Below, piece after piece: positions 2,308-58,853 of a DNA stretch of 64,000 nucleotides. The position numbers were made by a program, and so were the translations under genes. The notes under the pieces were generated by a model that saw nothing but the letters and a program-made list of their open reading frames with translations, did no database searches and was not told the origin of the DNA. Position 1 is the first letter of the stretch, and every line of letters begins with the position of its first letter. The DNA comes from Candidatus Kaiserbacteria bacterium (lineage in GTDB: Bacteria > Patescibacteriota > Minisyncoccia > Phycocordibacterales > UBA2100): contig CP066682.1 of assembly GCA_016432285.1 (NCBI GenBank), forward strand, positions 188,273 through 252,272. The letters are read 5' to 3'.

Positions 2308-2485
2308 GTCGGCACGCACGCTCTGTGCGTATTCTTTTGCTTGCCCTGAGCGAAGTCGAAGGGCCGAAATATTGAATCGTGTGGCCTAGCGAACCACGTA
2401 CAGCGATCCAAAATTCCCAAAAGAACTACCGGAGCACTCAAAAGCGTTGGCGATTAGCAAATTAGTAGCTAATACAATTATTTGT

Positions 2486-3685
<1,200 letters not shown>

Positions 3686-3735: not shown

Positions 3736-3860
3736 TAGCGGCGAACATGGTGAAAGACACCAAACGTTGTGCATGTACCGTGCTTGTGCCGCACAGGTAC
3801 CATGTGTGTTATTTCCGCATACCCCTTGATCTCCGGGGCCCAATCCCTATACTTTACTTT

Positions 3861-4259
3861 ATGGTTAAGTATTGGAATCCCGCGCGGATCAAGCGGATCC
3901 GCGAACGGCCCGAGCGCAAAGAACAGCGAATATACGATGAGGCGAAGAAAGAGCGAAAGAGGCTGCTTCGTGGGATGCCAGTTGGGAGAGATCCCGAACG
4001 CTTACTCGATGTACTCGGATTGCCGTTGCGGCGCAAAATGCTAGGCCGCTTGCAAAAGAGCGGTGCGATGTCCGTCTCCAAACTTGCAGAGCCGTTCGGG
4101 CTTACGCTGTCCGCAGCACTCAAACATGTCCGCTACCTGGAGTGGTCGGGCATTGTGAAGACGAAAAAACAGGGTCGCACGCGAATCTGTTCTTATAACC
4201 CCGGCGCGCTCCCAGAGCTTGCACGCTTCCTCGAATCCCGATACTTTAATCATAAGTAA
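3861..4259 (+). CDS. ArsR/SmtB-family winged-helix transcriptional regulator
   Basis: HTH segment SVSKLAEPFGLTLSAALKHVRYLEWSGIV; ~130 aa; internal ATG at 3861. Confidence 0.7.
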   Translation: MVKYWNPARIKRIRERPERKEQRIYDEAKKERKRLLRGMPVGRDPERLLDVLGLPLRRKMLGRLQKSGAMSVSKLAEPFGLTLSAALKHVRYLEWSGIVKTKKQGRTRICSYNPGALPELARFLESRYFNHK

Positions 4260-4270: not shown

Positions 4271-4599
4271 TCTGCCCGCGCTCGTCTTCTAGCGGGTTTT
4301 CCCGCCTGGCCGTTCGATTCGATTACAAGCAGGTATACTGGCAGTATGAAAGCACCGCCGTTTACGAATCTCGCCGTCTTCGTGCTTTTCTTCGGCCTCG
4401 CGCTTATTGAGGCGATGCAGCGGGGCAACTGGATCGGCGCGGCCCTCTTTCTCGCACTCGGCGCCCTTTCCCTGTGGGCCGACTTTTCCAAGCGATAGGC
4501 GTCCAAGACAAAGCCTTGCAAATACGTGCGGCAAGGCGAGGCCTTGCCGCGCGTTCACATCGCCGGAGTCCGACATTTCGGCGGGAGTATAATGGCGAC

Positions 4600-4980
4600 A
4601 TGAAAGTCTGGGTCAGACGTGTCGTGTATGCGATTGTGCTCTGGGCGCTGCTTTTCGTGGCAGCGATTCCGCTTTTGCCGCTCCAGACGGCCGACCTTGC
4701 GGCGTTCAAGGCCGTGATGGCCATGCTCGGCTCCCTCGCCGGCGCGGCGCTCGCCTCGCATTACTTCCTCGGCGTGCAAAGCAACTACCTGCGGGAGGGC
4801 ATCTACACCGCAATCACATGGATGGCGGTCAATTGGCTCCTGGATCTCGTCGCGCTCCTTCCCTTTACCGGACAATCGATTCCGCAGTACTTCCTGCAAA
4901 TCGGCATCGAGTATCTCGGTATGTTTGGCATCCTCGTCGCGATCGGCTACGTGCTCGAAAAAAAGACGCCGCGCTTGTAA
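4600..4980 (+). CDS. small polytopic membrane protein (about 4 TM), unknown function
   Basis: Hydrophobic helices; TATAAT at 4588-4593, 6 nt upstream of ATG 4600. Confidence 0.5.
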   Translation: MKVWVRRVVYAIVLWALLFVAAIPLLPLQTADLAAFKAVMAMLGSLAGAALASHYFLGVQSNYLREGIYTAITWMAVNWLLDLVALLPFTGQSIPQYFLQIGIEYLGMFGILVAIGYVLEKKTPRL

Positions 4981-5031: not shown

Positions 5032-5448
5032 ATGACAGCGGAAGCGACAAAGAAGCCTCGCGCCTCGCGCGCGAAGACGGCCAAGAAGGCCGACGATTCC
5101 GCTGCACCCCAAGCTCCGGCCCGCGCCAAAAAAGCGGAGGCTGCGCACCGCCTTCGCATCAAGGTCCGCGCCTACGAGCACGGCGTCCTCGATAATTCCG
5201 TGAAGCAGATCATCGACACGGCTGCCCGCTACAATGCGGAAGTCGTTGGTCCGGTGCCGCTTCCGATCGACATCAAAAAGTACACCGTCAACCGCGCCGC
5301 ATTCATCGACAAAGACTCCCGCGAGCAGTTCGAGATGCGTATCCACAAGCGCATGATCGACATCCTCAACCCAGCACCGAAAGTCATCGAAGCCCTCACC
5401 AACATCGACCTCCCTTCGGGTGTTTCGATAGATGTAAAGATGATGTAG
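5032..5448 (+). CDS. rpsJ: 30S ribosomal protein S10, with ~40-aa Lys/Ala-rich N-terminal extension
   Basis: Core HRLRIKVRAYEH...VVGPVPLP...matches S10; the only in-frame Met is at 5032. Confidence 0.9.
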   Translation: MTAEATKKPRASRAKTAKKADDSAAPQAPARAKKAEAAHRLRIKVRAYEHGVLDNSVKQIIDTAARYNAEVVGPVPLPIDIKKYTVNRAAFIDKDSREQFEMRIHKRMIDILNPAPKVIEALTNIDLPSGVSIDVKMM

Positions 5449-5578: not shown

Positions 5579-6451
5579 ATGCGGGCGTTCACCTGCGGCC
5601 GGAGGCAACCAGGCGACACGTTCTATCTTGATTTCAATCCCTGTGTACGCGAGCCAAAAACGTGGAAGGAGGAAATCTATGCCGCCGCGAAGCTCCTGGC
5701 GAATCGTGCGGGCTCAAGGCCGATCTGGCTCGCTTCGAGCGGAGGAACAGACAGCGAAGTCATGTGTCGCGCCTTTTTTGACCAAGGAATTAATTTTTCA
5801 GTACTCACGGTAGAGCACATCGCTGGCACCAACCGTCACGACACGGCCTACGCACGTGCCTGGTGTCGCGCACGAGCGATTCCCCAGAAGATCGTTGAAC
5901 TCGACATGCCGGCGTTCCTCTCAAATGACGTTTTTGAATATACGCGAAAGGAGTACGTAACTGGAAACGTGTATCGCTACTTTCAAATTCGGTTGCTCGA
6001 GGAAATCGATCGCCTCGGAGGCTTCGGCGTCATTGGAAGCGGCGAACAGCTGTATCAAGCAGCGTCCGGCGCCGTTCCGTATCTCGAATACGAAGTGGGG
6101 ATTATGGCTCCGCTTCAGTGGAGCGAGCGGCACAACACCGAGCACGAGCCTTTTTTCTACATGAGCACACCCGAAATCTATCGGTCGTACATGGATATTC
6201 CGATCATCGCGCGCAACCTCCACTACCGCGACATCTTCATCCACCGCAAGAACGCGTTTCTCCTGAAGCGTATTGCCACAAATGCCGTGTGGGACGATTT
6301 GCGCGACAGACCGAAGTTCACCGGGTACGAGCACATACGGCCGCACCGCCTCGCCGCGCAAAAAAAGTTGAGGGGAATGTTCGGCGACCGCATACAAACG
6401 CTCCGGATTCCCGTCGATGAGGTGCGGAACCAGCTCGACGCGCGGTCATAA
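5579..6451 (+). CDS. PP-loop (SGGxDS) ATP pyrophosphatase family protein, unassigned subfamily
   Basis: IWLASSGGTDSEVM motif near residue 50; 290 aa; lacks the QueC zinc-Cys cluster and the TilS length. Confidence 0.6.
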   Translation: MRAFTCGRRQPGDTFYLDFNPCVREPKTWKEEIYAAAKLLANRAGSRPIWLASSGGTDSEVMCRAFFDQGINFSVLTVEHIAGTNRHDTAYARAWCRARAIPQKIVELDMPAFLSNDVFEYTRKEYVTGNVYRYFQIRLLEEIDRLGGFGVIGSGEQLYQAASGAVPYLEYEVGIMAPLQWSERHNTEHEPFFYMSTPEIYRSYMDIPIIARNLHYRDIFIHRKNAFLLKRIATNAVWDDLRDRPKFTGYEHIRPHRLAAQKKLRGMFGDRIQTLRIPVDEVRNQLDARS

Positions 6452-6498
6452 TCAGGAAACCTCTTACTACGTATGCAGAGTGATCGATAAAGAAGTAT

Positions 6499-6520
6499 CC
6501 CCGGCCGAAAGCGGCCGGGG
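6499..6520. terminator. hairpin between convergent genes (CCCCGGCCG-aaag-CGGCCGGGG)
   Basis: Perfect 9-bp GC stem in the 85-nt convergent intergenic space. Confidence 0.4.
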
Positions 6521-6535
6521 ACCAGTCGAAGGAGC

Positions 6536-7990
6536 CTATGTTCGCCGCCGCCATGTCGCGATGAGGACGATAATCCCCGACGCGAGCACGGAAAAGAGCG
6601 AACCGCCGATGATCATCGGCGTCACCTTGTAGAGGTTGCCGTAGGCGAAGATCGGCAACCCGATCACGATTGAGGTGATAATTCCCCAGAACATCCCCGG
6701 TTCACTCACCTGCTTTTTCAAGATCGTGATCACTGTCGGGAGCAGCGTGGATGCCCGCAGCGTTCCATAAAAGAGGAACAAGTACGGGATTGTCATCCCC
6801 GGGATATTCGCGATCGCGATGCCGCCGACGACGAGGACGAGCATCGCGCCGCGCGAGAACCACGAGAATCCGCGACGATCTAGGCTCTCGCCGTGACCAG
6901 CGCGTCCGGCGATATCGTGACCAGCGAGGCTTGATATCGCCGTCAGGTTGGAATCCAATGTCGACACAAGCCCCGAGAGGAGCAGGTAGACAAACATGAT
7001 AAGGATCCAGCCTGGCAGCAGTTTGCGCTCCACGAGATTCCCGACCACTTCAAGATTGACCCGCTGTGTGTCTACTGCAGTGAGCCCCATTCCCGCGCCA
7101 AGGAAGCCGAGAAGTGAGAGTGTAATCGGGACCACGCCGAATATGAATGCGGCGAGGATAAATGCCAGCCGTACGGAATCCTTGCGGATGGCAAATGCCC
7201 GCTGCCAGAAGCTTTGATCGCCAAATGGCCCTGCGAGCAGTCCGATTGTCACGGGGATCCCGAAGGTCAAGAACACCGTCAGGCCGTCTCCAGAGAAAAG
7301 GTCGGTAAATGTCCCGCTCTTCCCGTAGAGACCCTTCTCGACGGTCTCCCATCCGCCTCCGGCTATGATCGTCCACGGGACGATCAGTGCGCCGACGGCG
7401 TAGATCATGAGGAGCTGAAGCGAATCACTGACCATCGAGCCCTTGAATCCGGAGTAGAGCGAGTACCCGACAGGAATGATGGCAAGGATGATCGTGAGCG
7501 ACCAGTACGGCAGACCCGTCAGTACAGAGAGGACCTTCGCGCCCGCCAAGAGTTGGACGGCAAACGAACACGTCGCAAGCCCGATCAATGCGGTCAGGTA
7601 CACGTTTTGCACCCGGCCCGAGTACCGCTCCCGCATGCAACCGGAGAGGGTGTAGCCATCCGGAAAGAGCGAGCGGAGCTTCCACGCGAAGAAGGCGAAG
7701 ATCACCAGGGTCGCCATGTTGGGCACGACGAACCAGAAGACCCCCACCCACCCTTGCGTATAGGCTTTTTCGGCGGCGAGGAACAGGGCTGGTGCCCAGA
7801 TCCACGCCGCTGCGGTCGACATCGCGCCGACAAGCGGCCCGACTTCGTGGTTAGCCACCAAGAATTGCGGCTTGGTGAACTTCACCCCTCGCGAGAAGAA
7901 CCACACGATTCCCGAGAGAGGCAGCGCGAAGCCGAAAATAAGGAAGGCCACCCCCTGGACGGGAGTGAACATCTGTAGTGCGCGAATCAT
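6536..7990 (-). CDS. sodium:solute symporter family (SSF) transporter
   Basis: 484 aa, ~13 TM; SSF-type signature and overall PutP/PanF-like architecture. Confidence 0.85.
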   Translation of the reverse strand: MIRALQMFTPVQGVAFLIFGFALPLSGIVWFFSRGVKFTKPQFLVANHEVGPLVGAMSTAAAWIWAPALFLAAEKAYTQGWVGVFWFVVPNMATLVIFAFFAWKLRSLFPDGYTLSGCMRERYSGRVQNVYLTALIGLATCSFAVQLLAGAKVLSVLTGLPYWSLTIILAIIPVGYSLYSGFKGSMVSDSLQLLMIYAVGALIVPWTIIAGGGWETVEKGLYGKSGTFTDLFSGDGLTVFLTFGIPVTIGLLAGPFGDQSFWQRAFAIRKDSVRLAFILAAFIFGVVPITLSLLGFLGAGMGLTAVDTQRVNLEVVGNLVERKLLPGWILIMFVYLLLSGLVSTLDSNLTAISSLAGHDIAGRAGHGESLDRRGFSWFSRGAMLVLVVGGIAIANIPGMTIPYLFLFYGTLRASTLLPTVITILKKQVSEPGMFWGIITSIVIGLPIFAYGNLYKVTPMIIGGSLFSVLASGIIVLIATWRRRT

Positions 7991-8092
7991 TGTCAGAGCT
8001 CCTTTGCTGTTGGTTTTTTCGCGGCACCATGCCGCCTACGAGCGACACTATCACCGCGTGCAGGTCGGCACAAGAAATGGCGCAAAGAAAAA

Positions 8093-8121
8093 GCCCCGGG
8101 ACGTGCCCGAGGCTTCTTTTT
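8093..8121. terminator. bidirectional hairpin plus T/A-runs between the small peptide gene and the symporter gene
   Basis: GCCCCGGGacgtgCCCGAGGC followed by ttcttttt. Confidence 0.5.
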
Positions 8122-8137
8122 CCGAGTCGCGCCGGTT

Positions 8138-8353
8138 CTACCTGACCGGCTTACCGCTGACCGGAGTGGTCGCGCCGCGACACTTCGCTGCGCTGCACTT
8201 GTCAATGCTTTTAGCCTTGCGGCTGCCGCCCCGGCCGCAGGTGTTTGACGGACAGGTGACCGTGTTGAGTCCGCGCTGCGCCTGTACCGGTTTCGTGTCG
8301 ATCGTTGTCGCGGCGAGAGCGATCGCCGCAGAGAACAAGAGGCTCTTCATCAT
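8138..8353 (-). CDS. small secreted Cys-rich peptide (Sec signal peptide plus ~46-aa mature region with 6 Cys)
   Basis: GGAGG 7 nt upstream of ATGATG (start 8353; ORF-track start 8374 is GTG); signal MMKSLLFSAAIALAATTIDTKPVQA; own promoter-like TTGACG...TGcATATAA upstream. Confidence 0.5.
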   Translation of the reverse strand: MMKSLLFSAAIALAATTIDTKPVQAQRGLNTVTCPSNTCGRGGSRKAKSIDKCSAAKCRGATTPVSGKPVR

Positions 8354-8428
8354 CTCGGTATCCTCCGAACTCACCAGCGCGGGATGCGCCGATGGCAGCC
8401 TTTTATATGCATTACAATTGCTTGCTCG

Positions 8429-9529
8429 TCAAGAGAAGTCGTTGTGCGGTTCGTAGTACGTTTCGGGGGAAAGGTCGTCGTGGAAACCGAGCTTCTCGTC
8501 GATAAAGCTGTAGGAGTGCTGCTGGAGAAAGAGCGCCTTCAGCGAGCCGCGCTTGATCTTCGAATCACGGTACTCGCGATCCTTGGTGTAATCGTAAATG
8601 ATGTCCTTGGCGGGCCACTTGTAGGTGTTCCATGTGTCTTTGATGCGCTTGTCGGGATTCGCCATGCTCCACCGCTGGAAGTCGTCGGTGCCGAAGAAGT
8701 GCACGTACTTCGTATCGATATAGCGCTGATCAATGTTACGGATGTTGCGTGGAGCCGTATGCAAAAGCCGCCGCAGATGCACAGCCTGCCACTTGAGGGC
8801 GAAGTTGATCCACCACAGATAGAGAAAATTCGTTTCGATTGAGAGGGGAGCGGCGGCCTTGAGGCGCTCGAAGAGGTCGAGATAGAAATCAGTCGTCGCC
8901 TGGTCTCCGAGCGATCGGCCGAAAAAGTCTGAAAAAAGATCGCGGCTGTACGGCTTGTGGAGATGCTCATCACCGAGCTGGTGGATGAGCTTGCCGACCA
9001 CGTCCGATCCGAAGAGCTGATCGTTGTGCTCGCCATCGAGGAGCACGTCCTTGGTGCCGAGTCGGTGCGAAAAGAGCACCGATGAGTCGACGCGCAGTTT
9101 GCCGTGGATATGCTCCTCCCAAAATCGCGGATTTTCCGTGATTGACTCCTCGCTGAGGAGCACCACGATGCGCCTCTTCTGCTCGTTGCTCCCCATCTTG
9201 AGGAGCGATATGAGGACGAGCGTGCTATCGATGCCGCCCGACCACGAGACACACACATCCACGTCCGCCACATCGGCTTTGGAGAGGATTTCCCTCGCCC
9301 GCGCGTCGCATATTTCTTCGTAGGTTTTTGTGAATCCTTCAAATGCGGGGAGGGGAGCGAGAGCTTTGAGCTTGATCGGCATGCGAATCGTGGCCGTCCG
9401 ATCCACGATCACGACCCCGGGCCCGTAGATATCAAAAAAGCGCGAGAACTTCGTGAAGCCGGGAAAGCGGTCCGGGTCGGCGCGCAGGACCTTCCGCGGT
9501 CTGTAGTAGAGCAGCCGCATGAGCCTCAC
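8429..9529 (-). CDS. asparagine-synthetase-C-domain-like PP-loop ATP pyrophosphatase (no glutaminase domain)
   Basis: VDVCVSWSGGIDSTLVL (AsnB-type SGGxDS); GTG 9529 overlaps the upstream stop (GTGA); alternative ATG at 9520. Confidence 0.7.
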   Translation of the reverse strand: MRLMRLLYYRPRKVLRADPDRFPGFTKFSRFFDIYGPGVVIVDRTATIRMPIKLKALAPLPAFEGFTKTYEEICDARAREILSKADVADVDVCVSWSGGIDSTLVLISLLKMGSNEQKRRIVVLLSEESITENPRFWEEHIHGKLRVDSSVLFSHRLGTKDVLLDGEHNDQLFGSDVVGKLIHQLGDEHLHKPYSRDLFSDFFGRSLGDQATTDFYLDLFERLKAAAPLSIETNFLYLWWINFALKWQAVHLRRLLHTAPRNIRNIDQRYIDTKYVHFFGTDDFQRWSMANPDKRIKDTWNTYKWPAKDIIYDYTKDREYRDSKIKRGSLKALFLQQHSYSFIDEKLGFHDDLSPETYYEPHNDFS

Positions 9530-10218
9530 GAGAGCGTGCCGACGTACGGGTCGCGAAAGAAAGTCTCCGTGATCGCATCCAGTTCCGCCACAGCCTTCGC
9601 CTTCTTTATTTTGTTGAAGTAGATGATCCGCAGGAGCTCCGTCTTCGCGAGCTGCTCCGTAGCGATCTTTGATTTGAAAATAATGTCGTCGGCTGCCTGG
9701 CGGGGCGACAGGCCGGCGTAGTCGGCGTACAGGAGCACGTGCGGATATTCGGGAAGTACGACCTCGTCGTACCCCGCGTTCTTAAAAGAGAGCGCTTCGA
9801 TCCGTTTTTCGAGGTACACCGAATCCTGAAGCGAAATTCCCGTCTCGAATCGGAGGCGAAGACGGCTGATGTTGCGCATGATCGTTTGCACGACTTTCAA
9901 CTTGCCGACCGCGAGCGCGGACTTCTCTCGGATCTCTTTCGTAAGAAGCTTCGGTGGCGTTTGCTCAAAGAGTCGCTGCTCAAAGTTCCATGTCCACGTG
10001 GGGTACTCCGCAGGTCCCGTCGTCGTGAGAAAGAGGGAGTCGCGGTAGTGCGGATACTGGATCCCGTAGGCGCCGATCGTATCTCCCGTGCACTCGTTGA
10101 GAAAGACGATGCCGGGCGCGGTCGTATCGAAAGCGAGCACAATATGCGTGCCGTATTCCACAAGAATGCTCGGAAGAAAAGGTGGTTGCATACGATCGTT
10201 TGGATTCAATAGTATCAA
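9526..10218 (-). CDS. hypothetical protein, translationally coupled to the AsnB-like gene
   Basis: 230-aa ORF; 4-nt overlap with the downstream gene; no recognisable motif. Confidence 0.5.
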   Translation of the reverse strand: MILLNPNDRMQPPFLPSILVEYGTHIVLAFDTTAPGIVFLNECTGDTIGAYGIQYPHYRDSLFLTTTGPAEYPTWTWNFEQRLFEQTPPKLLTKEIREKSALAVGKLKVVQTIMRNISRLRLRFETGISLQDSVYLEKRIEALSFKNAGYDEVVLPEYPHVLLYADYAGLSPRQAADDIIFKSKIATEQLAKTELLRIIYFNKIKKAKAVAELDAITETFFRDPYVGTLS

Positions 10219-10282
10219 AATACTGCAACTTTATCCCCATGGATGCACTAGGTATTTGCGCTGCGCGTTCCATACTTGTTGT

Positions 10283-10564
10283 ATGAACCGGCTCGTGCGT
10301 GTGGGAAGGCAAGCAGGGAGAGTGGTACGCTCGCTTTCTCTCGTCGTAGCCGGGCTCTTCGTCGTTGCATTCGGGGTCGGCGGCAGAAATGCGGAATCCG
10401 ACGGACAAAATCAGGGTGTGCTCGCCAACATCAAGGACGAATTTACCGCGTACGCCGACGCACCCTATTCGCAGGCATCCTACTACTCCCAGGCGGACTA
10501 CGGCTGGTGGGGCGGTGGCGACGGCGGTGGCGACAGCGGCGACGCTGGCGGTGGGGACGCCTGA
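10283..10564 (+). CDS. module copy 1, small TM peptide (93 aa): basic N-terminus, TM helix, AYADAPY motif, Tyr-rich, GWWGG, Gly/Asp-rich acidic tail
   Basis: Internal ATG at 10283 in ORF 10088..10564; paralogous to 17141..17392 and 49292..49570. Confidence 0.55.
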   Translation: MNRLVRVGRQAGRVVRSLSLVVAGLFVVAFGVGGRNAESDGQNQGVLANIKDEFTAYADAPYSQASYYSQADYGWWGGGDGGGDSGDAGGGDA

Positions 10565-10571
10565 TACACCT

Positions 10572-11741
10572 ATGCAACCGAGCATCAAGATCATCCTCTC
10601 GGCCGTTTTGATTCTCGGCGCCCTCTCTTTTGCCGCCTTCTACTACTTCGCGATCGCGCCATTGAGTCAGCCGTCGGACGAGGGGCGACCGCGCGCCGAG
10701 AGTCTGACGGAGGCCATGCAAAAGCAGCTCGCGGGCGACCGGACGGGAGCCTATCAAAGCGCGCAGCGGCAGATCGCGGAAGGCGGCACCGAAGAAGATA
10801 CGGTGCTTGCGAAAATCACCGCGGCCAATTCGCTTTTCCAGATTGCGACTACGACCGAGGGCAGAATTGCCGCGATGCGGATACTAGCAAACGCGTATTC
10901 GGAAGGACAGAGCCCGCAGAGCAAAGCACTTGTCCTCAATGCGCTCGTGTGGACGCTGATTTTTAATGCCAATACCGAGCCTGTTACGCTCGCCGCGTTT
11001 GGTTTCAATGAGTTCCAGCCGTTTGCGGTCGAAGGTGCCAACGGAAAGTCGTTTCAGAACCTCCTGAAGCAATCGATCAGTCTCGCGCCGACACGCCGGG
11101 CGTACTACATGCGTGCAGTCGTCGCGTCGCGAGAGCTCGAGCGCAATTTCGCACCGGACTCCGCAAAGCTCCTGTCCGCCGCCTCTTCCGATTCGGTGCG
11201 CGAAATTGCGCAGAACATTCTCAAATTTATCGAGCAGGGAGATGCGCTCGCGCGGGCAGCGCCGCTCGACTCGGGGATAGAGGAACTCGACGACATCACG
11301 GAAGCGCAAAATCAAATCTACCGAGGGCTCGCGCTCTCCGCGGTCGCACTTGTCGACTCCTCGCAGCTTTCAAGCGCCCTCGGTGCTTTCCAAGCGGTCT
11401 TGGATACGGCCAGAAGCGGGGAGCCCACCGTGGCCGTGAATGTGATGGCCGCATACGCGCACCTGTATGCCGGTCGGATCGCGGCTGCAGTGGGTGGATC
11501 GGCGAATACGGCAGTTGCTCGCTCGCACCTTGCCGACTTCGCGGCATCCGCAGAGGCATCGCCGAAGGATTACGTCAAGATTTACGAAATGTTCCAGTGG
11601 CTCCGAGGCGGCGCTTCGATTCCCGCATCCGAGCAGGCGGAGAGCAGGCAGTATCGCCTCTACCAAACGTACTCATCGCTCGCGGCGCTCTCTCCCGATT
11701 TCAAAAATTTCCTCGCTTCAGTCGGTTGGCAGTTCGAGTAG
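10572..11741 (+). CDS. module copy 1, ~390-aa N-terminally anchored protein (paralog of 17408..18595 and 49578..50771)
   Basis: ATG 8 nt after the peptide stop; N-terminal TM; shared early motif LQ.L..G.Y.AA and C-terminal F(K)NFL.S.GW.(F/L)E. Confidence 0.6.
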   Translation: MQPSIKIILSAVLILGALSFAAFYYFAIAPLSQPSDEGRPRAESLTEAMQKQLAGDRTGAYQSAQRQIAEGGTEEDTVLAKITAANSLFQIATTTEGRIAAMRILANAYSEGQSPQSKALVLNALVWTLIFNANTEPVTLAAFGFNEFQPFAVEGANGKSFQNLLKQSISLAPTRRAYYMRAVVASRELERNFAPDSAKLLSAASSDSVREIAQNILKFIEQGDALARAAPLDSGIEELDDITEAQNQIYRGLALSAVALVDSSQLSSALGAFQAVLDTARSGEPTVAVNVMAAYAHLYAGRIAAAVGGSANTAVARSHLADFAASAEASPKDYVKIYEMFQWLRGGASIPASEQAESRQYRLYQTYSSLAALSPDFKNFLASVGWQFE

Positions 11742-12240: not shown

Positions 12241-12270
12241 TTGACTTTGAGTGCAAAATCAATGCATAAT
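12241..12270 (+). promoter_or_regulatory. promoter TTGACT-18nt-TGcATAAT for the small secreted protein gene
   Basis: -35 at 12241-12246; extended -10 at 12263-12270. Confidence 0.4.
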
Positions 12271-12322
12271 ATGCCCTCACGGCATGAGAGACCTCATGAC
12301 GAAACGTTCAAGGAGAGGAGAA

Positions 12323-12589
12323 ATGAAAAAACTGATCTTTACGGCCGCGACGGCACTGCTCGGCTTGTTCAGCTTGGCCGGGTCAAACTCTGCCTCGGCG
12401 CAGTGGCCCACAAGCTGCCTCGAAACCAAGACCAAGGGGGACTGCCCCAAGTGCCTGCAGTCTCGCAATGAGGCCGGCTCGTCGGGGGGCTTCAATCACT
12501 GCGCGGCGAACTGGCGCGGTCCCCAGGCCGGAATTACGACGACCGGGGGGCAAGCTCCACGCATGAGGGGTAGAGGCCGTAAGAAGTAA
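12323..12589 (+). CDS. small secreted basic Cys-containing protein (88 aa)
   Basis: aggagaggag SD upstream of ATG 12323; signal MKKLIFTAATALLGLFSLAGSNSASA; 4 Cys; Arg/Lys-rich C-terminus. Confidence 0.5.
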   Translation: MKKLIFTAATALLGLFSLAGSNSASAQWPTSCLETKTKGDCPKCLQSRNEAGSSGGFNHCAANWRGPQAGITTTGGQAPRMRGRGRKK

Positions 12590-12611
12590 GCGACCCCACT
12601 CATCAAAGCGA

Positions 12612-12640
12612 GGCCCGGCGGTCAATGCCGGGCCTTTTCT
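12612..12640. terminator. bidirectional rho-independent terminator (GGCCCGGCggtcaatGCCGGGCCtttt)
   Basis: Perfect 8-bp GC stem plus T-run between convergent genes. Confidence 0.55.
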
Positions 12641-13845
12641 TAGTCATTAGCTGGCAGTGATCCGCTCTTTTCCGTATACCTCTCGAGCGCAGCGATACAG
12701 ACGTGTGGCTCGGAGACGCGCCCGCACTCCGCAGAGAGCGAGTCCACGCGTGTCTCGGATTCCATATTTTGAAACGCTGCATTAAAACACTGTTGCTCTC
12801 TCTCGCTTTCTCCCACGGCACGACAGTACTCAAGCGCTTCCGTGTAGTTTCTGTTATCCACGTACTTGAGTACGACACCGACGCTGCACGCATCCCTTTG
12901 CGAAACATTCCCAAAGTTTCCGCACTGACCCGGGTCGCTCGAGGCACTTTGATTGAGCTGCTCGACACTTGAATAGCCGTACCCCGTATAGCAATCTCGC
13001 TGGTCGCCCCCCGTGAACGCATTGCACGCCTCAACGATGAGCGCCGCCCGCTCGCTTGTATCACGTCTTGTTCGCGCCAGCAGATCACGCTGAAAACCGG
13101 CAAGCTCGAAGAAGCATGCGTGTCGATATTGCGCGTCAACGGAGTCGCACGGGTAAGCAGGATCGTCTGTTGCGATCGTCGCGGATGCGGAGCGAAAAGC
13201 GAGCGAGTTTTCTTCGCCCACCGCTTCCATAAAGACCCCGAGGTAACACCGCTCCGCCTCGTCTCCATCGGCGATTGATTCGCAACTTTTGAGTGCTTCA
13301 TCGAAATCCTGCGTGGCGATGTAGAGTAAGTGTCCGATGCCGTGGCAGAGCTGCGTCTTAGCCGTACAGTACTTTGCGCCGATCGCGCCTATCGTCGCAG
13401 CATCGGCGTGCGCGATATCCTCGTCGTACGCATCGGCGAGTTCTGCGACGGCTGCCGCAGCGATAGCGCCGTGCTTACAGCCATTGCGACACAGGCCTGT
13501 GCATGCAGCGAGCGTCTCCTCAAGCCCGTCTCCTCTCTCTATGGACAGCTGACCGATTGCGTGCGCCGTTACGTGGCAGCTCGATACGACCGATGGGGGA
13601 GACGATTCGTTCGTAATGTACCGCATAAGCTTCGGCGTGGAGAATTGTTGCATGAGTTGATTCACGGTTTCTTGCACGCAAGAAAAATCCGCGCGATAGC
13701 CATGGGAGGCGGCAGGGTTCTCCGAGAAACAGCGCGCAAGCTCCTCGGGCGTCATCATTTTCGGTGATTGCATGTACGCGAAAATGAAAACGACGATTGC
13801 GATCACGCCGATGACGAGAATCTTTTGCCCGCTCCAACGGTTCAT
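12640..13845 (-). CDS. membrane-anchored Cys-rich repeat protein (~26 Cys)
   Basis: N-terminal TM, then repeated C...C(Y/F) motifs; 4-nt start/stop overlap with the upstream gene. Confidence 0.55.
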   Translation of the reverse strand: MNRWSGQKILVIGVIAIVVFIFAYMQSPKMMTPEELARCFSENPAASHGYRADFSCVQETVNQLMQQFSTPKLMRYITNESSPPSVVSSCHVTAHAIGQLSIERGDGLEETLAACTGLCRNGCKHGAIAAAAVAELADAYDEDIAHADAATIGAIGAKYCTAKTQLCHGIGHLLYIATQDFDEALKSCESIADGDEAERCYLGVFMEAVGEENSLAFRSASATIATDDPAYPCDSVDAQYRHACFFELAGFQRDLLARTRRDTSERAALIVEACNAFTGGDQRDCYTGYGYSSVEQLNQSASSDPGQCGNFGNVSQRDACSVGVVLKYVDNRNYTEALEYCRAVGESEREQQCFNAAFQNMESETRVDSLSAECGRVSEPHVCIAALERYTEKSGSLPAND

Positions 13846-15551
13846 GCCTTCTTTTCGTCCTTCTCAACGCAATAGATTTCGTTGGCGAAGGTTGGTACGA
13901 AGAATCGGCTGGTCTCCGCGTTGTACGCGATCTTGTTGGTTATCCGTTCTGTAAGGGTGATAGAAGCCTGTTCCTTCCCGGTGCGTGCGTCGATTTCCGT
14001 CAGCCGACCGGTGTTCGATCCAATGAAGACGCTGTCGCCGATAATCTTCGGGCTCGCGAAAATGCGGGCGCCGCTGCTCCAGCGCCATACCTCCTGGAAG
14101 CTCGAAAGGTCAACGCAGTAGAGATTCTTATCGAGCGACCCGATAATCGCCGTGTTCTCATAGAGCGCGGGAGTCGCGTAGAAGCCGTACTCCGCCTGGA
14201 ATCGGCCGGCCTCTGTGCCGGTGCGGCGATCAACGAAGTAAAGAGTTCCAGCGGTGCTGCCGAAGATCACACGGTCGTGATTCCTGTCGTATGCAAAAGA
14301 CTCCTTGATGTCGTTACTGCTGAAACCAACGTCAAGTTCCGCGTCCGATGGTTCGGCCGGCGAAAACTTCCACTTCAGCGCCCCCGTCTTGGCATCGAGG
14401 AGGTACGCGGCACCGTCGTTTGATCCGACGATAACTTCGCGGGTGTCTTTTAGGTAAAGCGGCGAAGAGTGCGTATAGCAGGGCATCTCCCGGTATTCCC
14501 ATATTTTTTTTCCGCTGTGCGCATCGAGCGCCACGACCCCTCCCCGCTTTCTCCAGAGGCCGAACTCAAGGCCCACGAAGACAAGATTCAAATCGACAGC
14601 GACGGCGGGGGAGGAGCCGATCCAATCTGCTTCAAGAAATACCCACTTTCGCTTGCCGGACGTCCGGTCGAGGGCGTAGAAGTTGCCGTCGTATCCACCG
14701 AAAAAGACGCTCTCGCCAAGGAGTGCGGGGGATGAAAAGATCCCCTTTCCCTTCATGTGCAGCAGAATGCGGTACGACCAAGCCACTTGACCCGTGTCCT
14801 GCCGGATCGCCCACATGGTCCCGTCGTCAGAGCCAACGTATACATGCGTGTCGTCAATCGCTGGTTCGGATTTTGGCACCACGTAAAAAAAGCTCGGGTT
14901 CTTGGCGGCGAATTTCCAGCGAACCATGAAGGGCCTTGAATGCACGGGCTCCTTGTGGGTCAAATTGCTGACGCCGAGAGTTTCACTAAAGTCATCGAGC
15001 GTAAATACGGAGAAAAGTTCGATGTTCTTTTTCCGCAGGTATTCGTAGTGCTCAAGATCTCGGAACCGTATCAGCGTCCACACGGCCTGCACCCGGTGTC
15101 CGAGCGCCTCCAGCACTTCCACCTGTCGCTCGATGCTCTTGCCGCTGTTTATCAGATCATCGACCAGAATGATCGGAGCGCCCGGAGCGATTTCGCCTTC
15201 AATGGCGCGCATCAATCCATCCTTTTTTCGCGACTTACGAATAAAAAATCCGGAAGTCTTCTTTTTTGATACCTCTCCCGCGTGGACGGTGAGCGCAGTA
15301 ACGAGTGTGATAGCGGCTGTCTCTATTCCTCCTATTTGGAAGGGGAAACGTTCGCGGAATGTATCCCAAAAAATCTCGGCAATATCCTCGAGCGCATCGC
15401 TTCGCAAGAGAATACGTCGCAGGTCAAAGAGCCAGCCGCTCTCCTTTAATTTTTTCCTACTCGAGACGATGTTCTCATGCTCGGCCCGGACATACGCGCT
15501 GTTCTCAATGAGTTCTTTTAGGTGCGCTTTATGTTCTTCGATTCCATCCAT
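13842..15551 (-). CDS. fusion protein: N-terminal type-I phosphoribosyltransferase (OPRTase-like) domain plus C-terminal PQQ-like beta-propeller repeats
   Basis: PRPP-binding motif PIILVDDLINSGKSI; about 7 repeats of G(T/N)hY(A/C)hD..(T/S)G...W; minus-strand TGCTATAGT promoter at 15575-15583. Confidence 0.65.
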   Translation of the reverse strand: MDGIEEHKAHLKELIENSAYVRAEHENIVSSRKKLKESGWLFDLRRILLRSDALEDIAEIFWDTFRERFPFQIGGIETAAITLVTALTVHAGEVSKKKTSGFFIRKSRKKDGLMRAIEGEIAPGAPIILVDDLINSGKSIERQVEVLEALGHRVQAVWTLIRFRDLEHYEYLRKKNIELFSVFTLDDFSETLGVSNLTHKEPVHSRPFMVRWKFAAKNPSFFYVVPKSEPAIDDTHVYVGSDDGTMWAIRQDTGQVAWSYRILLHMKGKGIFSSPALLGESVFFGGYDGNFYALDRTSGKRKWVFLEADWIGSSPAVAVDLNLVFVGLEFGLWRKRGGVVALDAHSGKKIWEYREMPCYTHSSPLYLKDTREVIVGSNDGAAYLLDAKTGALKWKFSPAEPSDAELDVGFSSNDIKESFAYDRNHDRVIFGSTAGTLYFVDRRTGTEAGRFQAEYGFYATPALYENTAIIGSLDKNLYCVDLSSFQEVWRWSSGARIFASPKIIGDSVFIGSNTGRLTEIDARTGKEQASITLTERITNKIAYNAETSRFFVPTFANEIYCVEKDEKKA

Positions 15552-15611: not shown

Positions 15612-16904
15612 ATGAGCCCCGGTGCTTCATTCTTTGACTCTCGCGCCGAGCAGAGCTTTCTGCGTTTTTATCGTCGTATCTTTTCGATTGCTGAGATAGA
15701 AGGAAGTAGAGTGCTGCAGTGGGTGTTTGGCGCGACGATCCTCTCATACTTCATCGCATTTGATTCTCGGCTTTACTCCGACGCGCTCACCGTAGATGCC
15801 TTTTTATCGGGTACGCACCGATGCTGGCCATACTTTCAATCGTGCGGTGAGTGGCTCTTTCTGCGTGCGCTCCCAGCCGGCTACTCCCAAATGCTGCTTT
15901 ACATGGCGCTCTTCGGTCTTCTGGCGCTTGCCGTGTATCTCATGTACAAGAAAGAATGGGTACTGGCGCATATCGCGCTCATCCCGAGTTTCCTCTGGCA
16001 CTTCCTCGGTTCGTTCGTCCTTAGCGGAGAGCTTGCGGGCAATTATGACTACTACCTTTTTCTTCTTGCGTTCGTGTTGCTTTTTGTGCCATACAAGGAG
16101 TTCTTTCTCAAACTTCTCTTGGTGCTCTTCTATTTCCTGGCATCGTTATCGAAAATTCACGAATCGTGGATTCTCGGCACGTACTTCTCCTCGTTGAAGA
16201 CAGGATTGCCACTCTTTCCAGACTGGTCGATACCGATTTGGACCAACCTCGTGATCTTTATGGAAATGGTCGCGGCGTGGTTCCTGCTCTCGGGCCGGAG
16301 GCTACTACAGCGTGCCGTATTCATTTTTTTCGTCGCTTTTCATCTCTACTCCGGCATTTTTGTGGGATTCCGGTATCCGGCCACCGTGCTGCCGACACTC
16401 CTCATCCTCTTCGGTCCTCTCTACGCCTATACGCCGCCGCCGCTTACGCGTCGCGCACTCGCCGGGTGGATACTGGTCTCTCTCATGTTTATGGCACAAC
16501 TTTCGCCACTCCTCGTGCGGGGCGATGAGAAACTCACACTCGAAGCAAATAAGTTCGGTCTCTACATGTTTGAATCCAACCACCAGTGCGTCTCAAGCGC
16601 GACGGTATTTCTGAAGGATGGTACGCAATACGAAGTTCGGGCCGAGAGCGTTTCCGCCCGGTCGCGGTGCGATCCGTACTATTACTGGTTTTCGCTCCGC
16701 GCGCCGTGCGAGAGGGATCAAGCAATTGGGCGAATTGTGTGGACGTTTGACCACTCGATCAACGGCGGTCCGTTTCTCCGGATCGTCGACGAGCAGGACG
16801 CGTGCTCGCTTTCGTATGATCCCTTTCGACACAATGCGTGGATCAAAACGGAAACCGACGCTCCAGAGGTTATCGGATGGCCCGTAGAAAATGTCTATGA
16901 TTGA
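15612..16904 (+). CDS. polytopic membrane protein with C-terminal Cys-containing soluble domain, unknown function
   Basis: ~8 hydrophobic helices then a soluble ~140 aa; TATAAT at 15596-15601, 10 nt upstream of the ATG. Confidence 0.55.
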   Translation: MSPGASFFDSRAEQSFLRFYRRIFSIAEIEGSRVLQWVFGATILSYFIAFDSRLYSDALTVDAFLSGTHRCWPYFQSCGEWLFLRALPAGYSQMLLYMALFGLLALAVYLMYKKEWVLAHIALIPSFLWHFLGSFVLSGELAGNYDYYLFLLAFVLLFVPYKEFFLKLLLVLFYFLASLSKIHESWILGTYFSSLKTGLPLFPDWSIPIWTNLVIFMEMVAAWFLLSGRRLLQRAVFIFFVAFHLYSGIFVGFRYPATVLPTLLILFGPLYAYTPPPLTRRALAGWILVSLMFMAQLSPLLVRGDEKLTLEANKFGLYMFESNHQCVSSATVFLKDGTQYEVRAESVSARSRCDPYYYWFSLRAPCERDQAIGRIVWTFDHSINGGPFLRIVDEQDACSLSYDPFRHNAWIKTETDAPEVIGWPVENVYD

Positions 16905-17140: not shown

Positions 17141-17392
17141 ATGGAAGTCTCCCTCCGGCGGGTCCTGAAGATCCTCGTTTACGCTCTCATGCTTGCCGCG
17201 GGGGTCATTCTCGCGTTCGTGTCATATCGGGATAAGGAAAACGCGACAGGGGGTTTAGTATCGACTGCCTACGCGGATGCGCCGTATGCGCAGAGCGCGT
17301 ATTACGGACAGGGGGGATATGGGTGGTGGGGCGGCGACGGCGGCGACGGAGACGATGACGGCGATGATGATAGTGGCGATGGCGATAGCTGA
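17141..17392 (+). CDS. module copy 2, small TM peptide (83 aa) with AYADAPY, GWWGG and poly-Gly/Asp tail
   Basis: Internal ATG 17141; motifs STAYADAPYAQSAYYGQGGYGWWGGDGGDGDDDGDDDSGDGDS. Confidence 0.55.
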   Translation: MEVSLRRVLKILVYALMLAAGVILAFVSYRDKENATGGLVSTAYADAPYAQSAYYGQGGYGWWGGDGGDGDDDGDDDSGDGDS

Positions 17393-17407: not shown

Positions 17408-18595
17408 ATGCCAGAAGCAGGAGAAGTACAGCAGCCTCAAACGCACTACGGTCGATCGATCTTGATCGGCAGTACCGTACTTCTCGTTGTCGGATTCGGA
17501 GTCGCGTACTTTCTCATCGTCATGCAGGTCCCCTCGCGCGGGGGAACTACCGGCGGAGTAGGCAGATTGCAGCCACAAACGCTCCAGCAGCTCAAAAAGG
17601 CTGGCAACTACGAGGCCGCGCTTGCGGAATACGAACGGATCATGAGCGATCCCCTTAAGGACGCGAATGAGAAAGGGTTTGCGGTCATCAGTGGAACCAA
17701 CCTCAAGTTCACGCTGACGGCGGACATAAAAGACATGATCGAGGACGTGCAGCGATTAAAGGAGGTCGTGCTTGATCCGTCGGTGGAGACTCGCGTGCGT
17801 GTCGAGGCGCTCAATACGCTTTCGGCATCCGTCTGCCGATCCGGACGAGATCCGATCATTTTCGATGAGCTCTATAAGGATGAGCCATTCAAGCGATACC
17901 TCGTGCCGGGCGATCCCGATCTCTCCGCGCGTCTCATGGCGGAGTGGTCATATGACATGTCGCCCACGTCCTTTGCCGCGATTCGTATTGCACGTTGGTA
18001 CTCCGATCAAGTATTCAGAAACGGCACGCTCTCGGGAGAGAAGGTGAGTGAATACACGGCAGAAGCAGAAAAGTATATGGAGATCGCGGGGCAGCTCGTG
18101 GAAAAGGAGCTCAAGCGCTCCACGGATCGCACGCGGAGCATTACTTATATCGCGTATCGTATGTGGACGGCGATCACCGTTGGCCGACTTGCGACGGTGA
18201 AGGACGAGTACCGGGCGCAGTACAAAACCGAATTCGAAGACTTACTGAACTTCCTCACGGCCAATAAGAACGTGGGCGTTTTCGATTACCTGTACCTGGT
18301 GCGCGAGCACTACGCGCGCTTCATGATCCGCATAGACGGCAACACCGCCGGAGCAAAGGCCCAGCTCGACATCCTTGCGCGCGAGCTCCAAGAGTTTCCA
18401 ATACCGGACTCCAGTACCTACGTGAGACTTATGCGCAACGAGTCTACGTACAATCCCGGCGGATACCTCTGGAACAACTACAAAACCCTCATGTCGATCT
18501 CGCCGAGTTTCAAAGCGACGGTAGAGGAGCTCCTCATTCCCGACCCTGAGACTATCGGCAGTTCTGCGGCACCCCTGGAAACAGCGGAGTTTTAA
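17408..18595 (+). CDS. module copy 2, ~395-aa N-terminally anchored protein
   Basis: ATG 15 nt after the peptide stop; N-terminal TM; LQQLKKAGNYEAALAEY motif shared with paralogs. Confidence 0.6.
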   Translation: MPEAGEVQQPQTHYGRSILIGSTVLLVVGFGVAYFLIVMQVPSRGGTTGGVGRLQPQTLQQLKKAGNYEAALAEYERIMSDPLKDANEKGFAVISGTNLKFTLTADIKDMIEDVQRLKEVVLDPSVETRVRVEALNTLSASVCRSGRDPIIFDELYKDEPFKRYLVPGDPDLSARLMAEWSYDMSPTSFAAIRIARWYSDQVFRNGTLSGEKVSEYTAEAEKYMEIAGQLVEKELKRSTDRTRSITYIAYRMWTAITVGRLATVKDEYRAQYKTEFEDLLNFLTANKNVGVFDYLYLVREHYARFMIRIDGNTAGAKAQLDILARELQEFPIPDSSTYVRLMRNESTYNPGGYLWNNYKTLMSISPSFKATVEELLIPDPETIGSSAAPLETAEF

Positions 18596-19416: not shown

Positions 19417-19911
19417 TTGCGCTCCATGAAGCGCGAGCGTGTGTATACTGAAGTTATGAGTTCGCGCTTCGCGACCTACGCGTTTCTCGTTTTTCTCGCG
19501 CTCACACTGCTCGTTTCTTTCGCCTCGTTTGCATACGCGCAGACCGACGAAGAGCTCCGCTCCACTGTCCGTGCGGCGATTCTCTCGGATCCACGCTCGG
19601 CAAGTATGAGCGAAGCGGAAATCGACGCGATGGTTGAAGCTCTTTCGGGTCAGGCGGCGGAGCAAGGCGTAACGGCCTCCGACATAACGTGGCAGCCGCA
19701 GCAGAGCGAGTTCCCTGCGACTTCCAAAGGGGAGCCGACCTCCTGCGCCTACCCCACACTCCTCTGCTCGCTCAATGAGGCGTTCGGCCTATCCGGATCG
19801 TCGATTCTGTTACCCACAGCTCTCGGGGTGGTCTCGGCGCTCCTCCTTGCGGTTGTTGCTATGATGATTGAACACCACCGCAAAGAGCGGTTCTCCGCAC
19901 AACGCGCATGA
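19417..19911 (+). CDS. secreted/tail-anchored small protein, paralog A (signal peptide, DEELRSTVRAAILSDPRSASMSEAEIDAMVEAL core, C-terminal TM ...MMIEHHRK)
   Basis: ~50% identical to 20906..21358; start uncertain (19417, 19426 or 19456). Confidence 0.5.
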   Translation: MRSMKRERVYTEVMSSRFATYAFLVFLALTLLVSFASFAYAQTDEELRSTVRAAILSDPRSASMSEAEIDAMVEALSGQAAEQGVTASDITWQPQQSEFPATSKGEPTSCAYPTLLCSLNEAFGLSGSSILLPTALGVVSALLLAVVAMMIEHHRKERFSAQRA

Positions 19912-20905: not shown

Positions 20906-21358
20906 ATGCACGCATATCTGAAACTTCGCACCGCATTCATCGTTACGCTTGCCCTCATCACCCTGAGCGCGCTTCCGCTCTTTGCCCATGCGCAGAGCGA
21001 CGAGGAGCTGCGCTCCACGATTCGCGCCGCAATCGTCGCAGATCCCCGCTCGGCCAGCATGAGTGAGGCGGAAATCGACGTGATGGTGGAGGCACTCGCC
21101 ACACAGGCGAAGGCCACCGGCGTCACGGCACGCGACGTCGAGAGTGCCGCGCGGGCGAGTCAGAATACACAGCGCCGCTCACCGTACGCGAGCGAATGCA
21201 CGAGCTTCATCTGCAAGGTCAACGAGGCGTTCGGCATCACCGGCAACGCAAGTGTGATCGCGGTTGCCATGGGCGTGACCGCCGCCGTGCTCCTCTTTGT
21301 GATCGGCATGCTCATCGAACACCATCGCCGCAAGCTCACAGGCTCCAATCCGCTCTAG
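20906..21358 (+). CDS. paralog A-prime of 19417..19911
   Basis: Shared motifs AQSDEELRSTIRAAIVADPRSASMSEAEIDVMVEAL, NEAFGITG and C-terminal TM MLIEHHRRK. Confidence 0.5.
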   Translation: MHAYLKLRTAFIVTLALITLSALPLFAHAQSDEELRSTIRAAIVADPRSASMSEAEIDVMVEALATQAKATGVTARDVESAARASQNTQRRSPYASECTSFICKVNEAFGITGNASVIAVAMGVTAAVLLFVIGMLIEHHRRKLTGSNPL

Positions 21359-21410: not shown

Positions 21411-21487
21411 ACATTCTCTTTGAGAATGTCCCATGTCCCCATACGGGACCAATGGTTCGGGAAAACGCCCGCCATTGTGGGCGTTTT
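21411..21487 (+). promoter_or_regulatory. structured 5' leader of the rplC operon: three hairpins, the last (AACGCCCgccattgtGGGCGTTttgt) terminator-like, 12 nt before the ATG
   Basis: Hairpins at 21411-21429, 21435-21449 and 21463-21487 read directly; candidate attenuator. Confidence 0.35.
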
Positions 21488-21498
21488 GTCATAACACT

Positions 21499-51888: not shown

Positions 51889-51923
51889 CAAAAAGCGCCT
51901 TGCGGCGCCAATTGTTTGTTTTG
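51889..51923 (-). terminator. terminator of ssrA (GGCGCCgcaaGGCGCtttttgttttg on the minus strand); its U-tract can also pair with the tmRNA 3' end (17-bp inverted repeat 51876-51892 / 51915-51931)
   Basis: Read directly from the sequence. Confidence 0.5.
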
Positions 51924-58736: not shown

Positions 58737-58798
58737 CTCAAAGGTTAGAGTGACCGGCTTATATCCGGTTGATCCTGGTTCGAGTCCAGGCGGGCGTA
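58727..58798 (+). tRNA. tRNA-Ile with anticodon UAU (reads AUA)
   Basis: Manual cloverleaf: acceptor GCGCCCG/CGGGCGT (G1.U72), D-arm GCTC-AAAGGTTA-GAGT, anticodon stem ACCGG/CCGGT with loop CTTATAT, T-arm CCTGG-TTCGAGT-CCAGG, discriminator A. Confidence 0.75.
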
Positions 58799-58853
58799 CA
58801 AGCGGTGTGGAATAAGGCGTTGCGGCGGCCTGCTCGCGTGCGAGAATGGAGGC

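Follow-up and report, generated by a model that had tools for sequence, protein, structure and literature searches.

An AsnB-like PP-loop enzyme and its coupled partner in the rpsJ-rplC gene block of a Kaiserbacteria genome, with relatives in uncultured phages

Genes between rpsJ and rplC

In a Candidatus Kaiserbacteria bacterium (contig CP066682.1, positions 188,273 to 252,272 of the forward strand; this stretch of 64,000 nucleotides, at its full length, is the window referred to below) the ribosomal protein genes rpsJ and rplC lie about 16 kb apart. A preliminary description, made from the sequence alone, had singled out in this gap two PP-loop ATP-pyrophosphatases, a 230-residue hypothetical protein, a small secreted peptide and a Na+/solute symporter, and had called them an accessory island. 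Our subject is the cassette formed by the larger enzyme, PP366, and its 230-residue partner, together with the second enzyme, PP290, and the block of genes in which they stand. The open reading frames (ORFs) are as first described (Table 1) and the gap between the ribosomal genes is real, as are the motifs SSGGTDS in PP290 and WSGGIDST in PP366 and the GTGA overlap through which the partner gene stops and the PP366 gene starts. The NCBI start for the latter is an ATG 9 nt later, giving 363 residues; coupling is tight either way. The preliminary description had not taken in the phage relatives or the larger cluster that extends beyond 5579-10218.

Table 1. Features of the rpsJ-rplC block and its borders (window coordinates)
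Feature	Position	Strand	Basis or remark
tuf	2447-3685		
ArsR-type regulator	3747-4259		between tuf and rpsJ
168-residue membrane protein	4474-4980		between tuf and rpsJ
rpsJ	5032-5448	+	PF00338, 1.5e-30; left edge of conserved insert
PP290, stand-alone AsnB-synthetase-like PP-loop enzyme, 290 residues	5579-6451	+	
SSF transporter, 484 residues	6536-7990	-	PF00474; final gene of minus-strand unit
Terminator-like hairpin and T-run 3' of 71-residue peptide gene	8084-8116	-	by eye; weak
71-residue Sec-type basic peptide, 4 Cys	8138-8353	-	sequence and GGAGGA ribosome-binding site
78-residue ORF	8138-8374	-	71 residues counted from ATG at 8353
PP366, predicted PP-loop amidoligase, 366 residues	8429-9529	-	WSGGIDST
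230-residue stand-alone partner of PP366	9526-10218	-	GTGA overlap; NCBI start gives 221 residues
93-residue membrane-anchored TAYADAPY peptide, Gly/Asp/Trp-rich tail	10283-10564	+	
~389-residue membrane-anchored protein	10572-11741	+	directly 3' of 93-residue peptide gene
Second Sec-type Cys-containing basic peptide	12296-12589	+	4 Cys after signal peptide
401-residue membrane-anchored Cys/His-rich protein	12640-13845	-	4-nt overlap with upstream gene
Phosphoribosyltransferase-like domain fused to PQQ/BamB-like beta-propeller	13842-15551	-	Pfam matches
430-residue polytopic membrane protein	15612-16904	+	
Second TAYADAPY peptide, 83 residues, Gly/Asp tail	17141-17392	+	
395-residue membrane-anchored protein	17408-18595	+	3' of second TAYADAPY peptide gene; homologues in 13 loci
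rplC	21433-22107	+	right edge of conserved insert

Related loci, numbered L001 onward, were collected by a pattern scan with one genome per species, 63 loci in all. In five of them (L011, L013, L015, L024 and L035) rplC and rpsJ are again separated, by 12-18 kb holding the same gene families as the window: a TPR protein, membrane-anchored proteins of 350-460 residues, the phosphoribosyltransferase-propeller fusion, the partner and the enzyme. Because the same insert with the same borders recurs in these other Paceibacteria genomes, the splitting of the S10 operon is conserved in the lineage, and the cassette belongs to a set of genes that this lineage has kept between rpsJ and rplC. The description as an accessory island is thus to be given up: GC content is even across the window, and at least five other Paceibacteria genomes have the insert. 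A recent island or prophage was considered and rejected on the same even GC, on the conserved synteny and on the lack of any tRNA gene inside the rpsJ-rplC block.

The two PP-loop enzymes and the partner protein

Both enzymes carry the signature of the PP-loop superfamily, SGGxDS(T) placed after the first beta-strand of a Rossmann-like fold. In PP366 it reads WSGGIDST, at residue 97, and is followed at residue 166 by DGEHNDQLFG; in PP290 the motifs are SSGGTDSE at residue 54 and GSGEQLY at residue 155. Among 140 non-identical relatives from CPR (Candidate Phyla Radiation) bacteria, proteobacteria and viral contigs SGGIDST is conserved at 95-100%, so chance does not explain it. In the second PP366 motif, E167 and D170 do not vary among 42 CPR sequences and are kept in 92% and 97%, respectively, of the 140 relatives. 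Judged by this joint conservation of the PP-loop and E167/D170, members of the PP366 family are predicted to be functional enzymes rather than decayed copies. The arrangement D-G-E167-H-N-D170-Q-L-F-G mirrors S-G-E348-G-S-D351-E-V-F-G-G of AsnB, a correspondence drawn by eye from the sequence pattern and not from superposition. The second motif of PP290 is limited to G-S-G-E-Q-L-Y, and the Glu there is not invariant.

Sequence profiles place these proteins poorly. PP366 has no Pfam or NCBIfam match at E<=0.01 and none in PADLOC, and the Pfam Asn_synthase model, PF00733, matches neither PP366 nor PP290; the PP-loop model gives PP290 16.9 bits, below its cutoff of 27. Searches of PDB sequences and profiles with both families returned nothing significant past the PP-loop, and hhalign against E. 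coli AsnB aligns the PP-loop alone, at 14-20% probability. Structural comparison is more informative. AlphaFold2 models built from the family alignments (predicted local distance difference test, pLDDT, 92.8 and 92.4 for the two enzymes) superpose on many PP-loop enzymes and have the fold of the AsnB synthetase domain. The comparison figures for PP366 are 13.3 with TsnB9, 12.3 with AsnB, 12.3 with beta-lactam synthetase and 10.9 with CarA; those for PP290 are 14.2 with human ASNS, 13.9 with AsnB, 13.2 with beta-lactam synthetase and 12.7 with CarA. Resemblance of the models to TilS and QueC is less than to AsnB. Between themselves the two enzymes are distant paralogues, with an hhalign probability of 84% in the PP-loop region.

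Both proteins start shortly ahead of the PP-loop, leaving no N-terminal class II (N-terminal nucleophile, Ntn) glutaminase domain with its Cys1: each is a free-standing, AsnB-synthetase-like enzyme that lacks a glutaminase. In this they differ from the AsnB synthetase domain, beta-lactam synthetase, CarA and the hydroxyamidotransferase TsnB9, all of which are accompanied by an N-terminal glutaminase-like domain. Identity to AsnB-type synthetases is ~10-15%, and the family adds its own N- and C-terminal elements and a dedicated gene for the 230-residue partner.

The profile searches that the preliminary description had recommended bear on whether these are instead housekeeping enzymes of nucleic-acid modification, of TilS, QueC, MnmA or TtcA type, set beside ribosomal genes by chance. 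The cluster does adjoin rpsJ and tuf, PP290 gives weak matches to the PP-loop and TilS_N models, and a phage homologue, near a tRNA gene, is automatically annotated as MnmA. The PP-loop ATP-pyrophosphatase core is indeed held in common with TilS and QueC, but scores fall far short of the cutoffs: the best NCBIfam match, PP290 to TilS_N, reaches 18.5 bits against 93.6, neither TIGR02432 nor PF01171 is matched at its curated cutoff, and QueC is neither a profile match nor the closest fold. The earlier view that these are not TilS or QueC therefore stands, and we regard a housekeeping role of this kind as extremely improbable.

A word-index search with the 230-residue protein found only the protein itself. 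This proved to be an artefact of sensitivity, as exhaustive search and comparison of neighbours revealed: the positional neighbours of PP366 genes in other genomes are its homologues (E 1e-46 to 1e-54), and the exhaustive search yielded 204 representative clusters. Those in the best 150 of the 204 clusters range from 84 to 275 residues, none of them being fused to an enzyme. Conservation in the family alignment lies in the C-terminal half, with R121, A142, A165, I179 and E194 invariant; the alignment has no conserved Cys, at the N-terminal position or elsewhere, and no catalytic motif was recognised in the protein. The partner family matches no PDB sequence, and against E. coli AsnB it reaches an hhalign probability of 0.1%.

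Partner and enzyme genes keep close company. By phmmer the partner adjoins the PP366 gene in 34 loci, to which prophage loci are added by a profile; it is present in every CPR or close Bdellovibrionales locus with enough flanking sequence, usually overlapping the enzyme gene or a few bases from it. In L010 it is ~9 kb away, and in one lineage (L004, L012) the gene order is reversed. The profile also finds the partner beside enzymes 35-39% identical to PP366 in Xanthomonas, Comamonas, Undibacterium and Polynucleobacter.

The preliminary description had offered, as an alternative, that the two genes are a split AsnB, the 230-residue protein being the degenerate remnant of the glutaminase domain; the pair would then make asparagine from ammonia in a genome-reduced host. 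Gene order (230 then 366), summed length (596 residues against 554 for AsnB) and the AsnB-like fold and motifs of the synthetase agree with this, as does the automatic naming of some viral homologues as asparagine synthases. The partner itself gives it no support at the level of sequence, having neither a conserved N-terminal Cys or other nucleophile nor any likeness to AsnB, and the reversed gene order and the lack of fusions, both among the best 150 partner clusters and among the 120 enzyme homologues listed, speak against it, as does the silence of the Asn_synthase model. Nor would plain asparagine synthesis lead one to expect the cupin and tailoring-enzyme neighbours seen in phages (below). 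We therefore set aside the remnant as an identity for the 230-residue protein and consider a split synthetase very improbable.

Neighbours in CPR bacteria, Bdellovibrionales and phages

The PP290 family is rare, with 12 proteins, and in every genomic context looked up its gene adjoins the partner-enzyme pair, in the same operon in L007 and L025. The transporter is a member of SSF (PF00474, 78.8 bits against a gathering cutoff of 22.8, 5e-22), as first described; it scores under the cutoff with TIGR00813 (104.6 bits against 184) and far under it with the PanF model, and no substrate-specific equivalog model matches at its cutoff. A terminator-like hairpin lies beyond its gene, at 6522-6497. Sixteen CPR loci have an SSF gene within 10 kb of a PP366 homologue; in at least eight it follows directly downstream.

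The linkage of the 290-, 230- and 366-residue proteins and, in CPR, of the SSF transporter is thus kept among relatives; that of the 71-residue peptide is not, no orthologue having been found in related loci. The peptide has the Sec-type N-terminus noticed at the outset (MMK, a hydrophobic core, VQA-Q) and its gene a GGAGGA ribosome-binding site; its cysteines number four, not the six first counted. Its gene had also been described as independently promoted and terminated. A promoter-like TTGACG-19 nt-TATAAA and the hairpin AAGCCTCGGG-CACG-TCCCGGGGCTT-TTTCTTT can be picked out by eye, but a consensus scan flagged neither. One peptide in one locus (L014, 5161-5403) ends in the same TPVSGKP.R, and many CPR loci have, close to the cluster, basic, Cys-containing peptides of 70-96 residues with signal peptides. 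The window's 64 kb hold two credible members of this Sec/Cys/basic class, both in Table 1; the second has a promoter-like site at 12241-12270 and a terminator-like hairpin at 12610-12636. The idea that such peptides form one family was dropped, since a profile from seven peptides of related loci recovers its members and misses those of the window. Their link to the cluster is suggestive, as an association of a class rather than of a conserved gene.

Outside CPR, the partner-enzyme pair occurs in Bdellovibrionales, in proteobacterial prophages and in IMG/VR viral contigs, often with a cupin and sometimes with PP290. Uncultured tailed phages proved to have full-length PP366 homologues when predicted viral structures were compared by Foldseek; the best has a template modelling (TM) score of 0.94 at 27% identity, and several of the viral homologues carry the automatic name 'asparagine synthase'. 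A scan of IMG/VR confirmed at least 521 contigs with relatives; the cassette is common in such phages, usually together with a cupin. From 80 of these loci fetched for their neighbourhoods, with 95 enzyme genes, a partner homologue adjoins 52 of the 95, a ~215-residue cupin is adjacent in 38 of the 80 loci (as in several CPR and proteobacterial ones), and PP290 relatives are found in 17. Other neighbours are of two kinds, those typical of phages (PhoH, dCMP deaminase, exonuclease, pyrimidine-dimer glycosylase) and those suited to tailoring (TauD-family and Asp/Asn-hydroxylase-family proteins, radical SAM, methyltransferase, desaturase-like and alpha/beta-hydrolase proteins). Bdellovibrionales loci have two enzyme copies with a carrier protein, a cupin and a double methyltransferase. 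PHROG scans gave weak matches only for the window proteins and none for the viral, prophage or Bdellovibrionales relatives, and literature searches for a phage cassette of asparagine synthase and cupin found nothing.

The pair comes after Baseplate_J and a tail-fibre-like gene in prophages of Xanthomonas, Undibacterium and Comamonas. The tail-fibre-like gene, directly before the pair in L040-L049, L068 and L137 (~8300-10950 in each), ends in a tract of 50-100 residues of poly-proline and has no obvious receptor-binding domain. Pseudomonas phage Cygsa01 (L072, PP179332.1 11421-13570) has two distant family copies downstream of its baseplate genes, both labelled 'tRNA-specific 2-thiouridylase MnmA', probably wrongly.

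Such a distribution raises the question of a phage-type conflict module, domesticated in CPR, in which the partner would be substrate or regulator of the enzyme, as in QatB-QatC of QatABCD or Cap9-CdnD. Relatives on more than 500 viral contigs, a position after the tail-fibre gene that is a typical accessory 'moron' site, and the two Cygsa01 copies beside baseplate and tail genes would suit it; so would the invariant Glu and Arg of the partner family, and a precedent exists in a PP-loop enzyme whose heterodimer partner is motif-less and possibly its substrate (PMC13376578). The Qat and Cap9-CdnD enzymes, however, are QueC-like and PP366 is AsnB-like; the ATPase, nuclease and cyclase companions of those systems are missing, and the pair has no conserved companion that could be an effector, whether nuclease, ATPase or other. 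No component model of PADLOC-DB 2.0 matches any of seven proteins of the region. Moreover, CPR copies of the enzyme are 50-57% identical across classes and hold a fixed position, unlike fast-turnover defence genes. A conflict module is accordingly improbable in our estimate.

Within CPR the neighbourhood has a different colour. A YcaO protein and a nitroreductase-family dehydrogenase are encoded in the block of 19 loci, often co-directional and packed with the propeller, partner and enzyme genes, and the YcaO-carrying loci also encode a peptide, anchored in the membrane, that has the motif A-H-A-D-A-P and a tail rich in Gly, Cys, Ser and Asp. Clusters for linear azole/azoline peptides are on record from 93 CPR genomes (Sharrar et al. 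2020, PMC7298704), and part of the Paceibacteria rpsJ-rplC block matches these predicted clusters; the paper, as read, does not describe the AsnB-like pair. Relatives resemble those clusters in having YcaO, nitroreductase and a Gly/Cys/Ser-rich precursor beside the cassette or in one operon with it. The window differs from azole clusters of the microcin B17 type: searches (tblastn) with the relatives' proteins find neither YcaO nor nitroreductase in its 64 kb, so that it cannot be counted as a linear azole-peptide cluster, and the tails of its precursor-like peptides are free of Cys. These peptides, the two TAYADAPY proteins of Table 1, are paralogues (60% identity over 42 residues), each encoded ahead of a gene for a ~390-residue membrane-anchored protein; the 93-residue one resembles linear azole-peptide precursors save for the absent tail Cys.

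Other members of the block are also shared. The phosphoribosyltransferase-propeller fusion is encoded in 22 related loci, and its gene often immediately precedes the 230+366 pair. This gene and that of the 430-residue membrane protein, divergent in the window, are a single fused gene in L031 and L032, both from Bdellovibrionales, an arrangement suggesting that the two proteins work together. Homologues of the 401-residue Cys/His-rich protein occur in 10 loci, in an operon with YcaO in L006 and L028, and those of the ~389-residue protein in L015, L023, L024 and L026.

A few further features of the window may be recorded. Between tuf and rpsJ, which are not contiguous, stand the regulator and membrane protein genes of Table 1, and RpsJ has a Lys/Ala/Pro-rich N-terminal extension of ~38 residues. 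The 164-residue membrane or secreted protein encoded at 19417-19911 has a partial paralogue, 52% identical, at 20987-21334, just 5' of rplC. An ordinary tmRNA gene (51921-52321, minus strand) encodes the tag peptide ANKVAQGVLSPIQVKDLQFAYAIA. ARAGORN and Rfam both identify a tRNA-Ile with anticodon UAU at 58727-58799 (plus strand). In most bacteria AUA is read by a CAU tRNA that TilS modifies with lysidine; decoding of AUA in this genome may therefore differ from the usual.

Possible substrates and significance of the cassette

We think it somewhat probable that PP366 and its coupled partner form a two-gene amide-forming enzyme cassette, with PP290 as an accessory paralogue, acting on the carboxylate of a small molecule or head group. 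From what is known of the family, both enzymes would bind ATP through the SGGxDS PP-loop and adenylate a substrate carboxylate with release of pyrophosphate, whereupon an amine would attack the adenylate to give the amide. As no glutaminase is present, the nitrogen donor would be free ammonia or the amine of a co-substrate rather than glutamine. The 230-residue protein would most likely be a binding or substrate-presenting subunit, and the SSF symporter of CPR probably imports a solute used by the enzyme. We lean towards a small-molecule or sugar/lipid-head-group carboxylate, in preference to a peptide, because of the SSF and cupin linkages, the nature of the phage neighbours and the lack of candidate peptides outside CPR.

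Several observations weigh against this interpretation. Alignment with AsnB at the profile level is limited to the PP-loop, and the second motif was matched by eye; the cupin is absent from the window; and some of the contigs that IMG/VR lists as viral may be wrongly classified pieces of cellular genomes. YcaO, nitroreductase and precursor-like peptides share one operon with the pair in several CPR genomes, and these YcaO operons fit peptide tailoring at least as well as they fit small-molecule chemistry.

This arrangement keeps alive the main rival, that the enzymes tailor ribosomally synthesized and post-translationally modified peptides (RiPPs) encoded in the block, notably the TAYADAPY peptides with their Gly/Asp tails. 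An Asp side chain or the C-terminus would be adenylated and converted to Asn, an isopeptide or an aspartimide, and the 230-residue protein would recognise the peptide as B1 or RRE (RiPP recognition element) proteins do for lasso cyclases. YcaO, nitroreductase, propeller, partner and enzyme genes are co-directional and packed in L001, L013, L011, L025 and L030. At least 10 CPR loci have precursor-like peptides with Gly/Cys/Ser/Asp tails, as does the window, at two places; it lacks YcaO, and the tails of its own peptides, though free of Cys, are full of Asp-Gly. CPR bacteria are, moreover, known to have linear azole-peptide clusters (PMC7298704).

There are also parallels with lasso peptides. 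Lasso cyclases (C proteins) are AsnB homologues, ATP-dependent enzymes that work with a small partner, B1/RRE, in clusters with peptides and a transporter, and the cassette likewise combines an AsnB-like enzyme and a small partner with peptides and a transporter nearby. Unlike lasso clusters, it is also found where there is no candidate peptide. Pfam searches of the neighbouring ORFs revealed neither RRE/PqqD nor B2 protease, and a lasso-type precursor, which should have Gly, Ala, Ser or Cys at the N-terminus and Asp or Glu at core position 7-9, was likewise not detected. The 71-residue peptide has a Sec signal, so the caution first expressed about a lasso precursor was justified. The broader suggestion of a RiPP pathway gains indirect support from the relatives in which the pair is in an operon with YcaO and nitroreductase.

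Other evidence tells against peptide tailoring. None of the viral, Bdellovibrionales or proteobacterial loci with the cassette encodes a peptide with a Gly-rich tail, and such peptides therefore cannot be a general substrate of the family. No leader peptidase, any more than an RRE/PqqD, was detected by Pfam in neighbouring ORFs. The peptides appear to be anchored N-in/C-out, which would put their tails outside the cell, away from a cytoplasmic enzyme, and the adjoining SSF transporter and the cupin suit small molecules better. On this evidence peptide tailoring is a possible but rather unlikely role; it and the amide-forming cassette that we favour are both more probable than a conflict module, a plain asparagine synthetase or nucleic-acid modification. 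A bolder version, which we consider unlikely, is that the pair, with PP290 and usually a cupin, is an amide-forming system not described before, shared by CPR bacteria and a large population of uncultured phages, and that in the conserved Paceibacteria block beside the ribosomal genes its targets are the membrane-anchored peptides, microcin-B17-like and Gly/Asp-rich, which it would modify by Asp amidation or by isopeptide or aspartimide formation. Were this version to prove correct, it would represent new RiPP tailoring chemistry and a phage route to remodelling the same target.

The superfamily and its chemistry are already known. The glutaminase-less, partner-dependent architecture and the spread between CPR bacteria and phages are undescribed in the libraries and literature searched, and with no Pfam, NCBIfam, PHROG or PADLOC family to claim it the cassette is a sizeable piece of unannotated enzymology. 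CPR genomes are tiny and have few spare genes; retention of the cassette in them, at the level of identity noted above and at a fixed place in a split S10 operon, suggests that it is important to CPR biology. Its substrate could reveal a step of nutrient salvage, surface modification or peptide tailoring common to ultra-small bacteria and phages, of greater interest still if that substrate were the Gly/Asp-rich peptides or a component of the host surface, and the cassette offers a tangible point of entry to the rpsJ-rplC block that Paceibacteria conserve.

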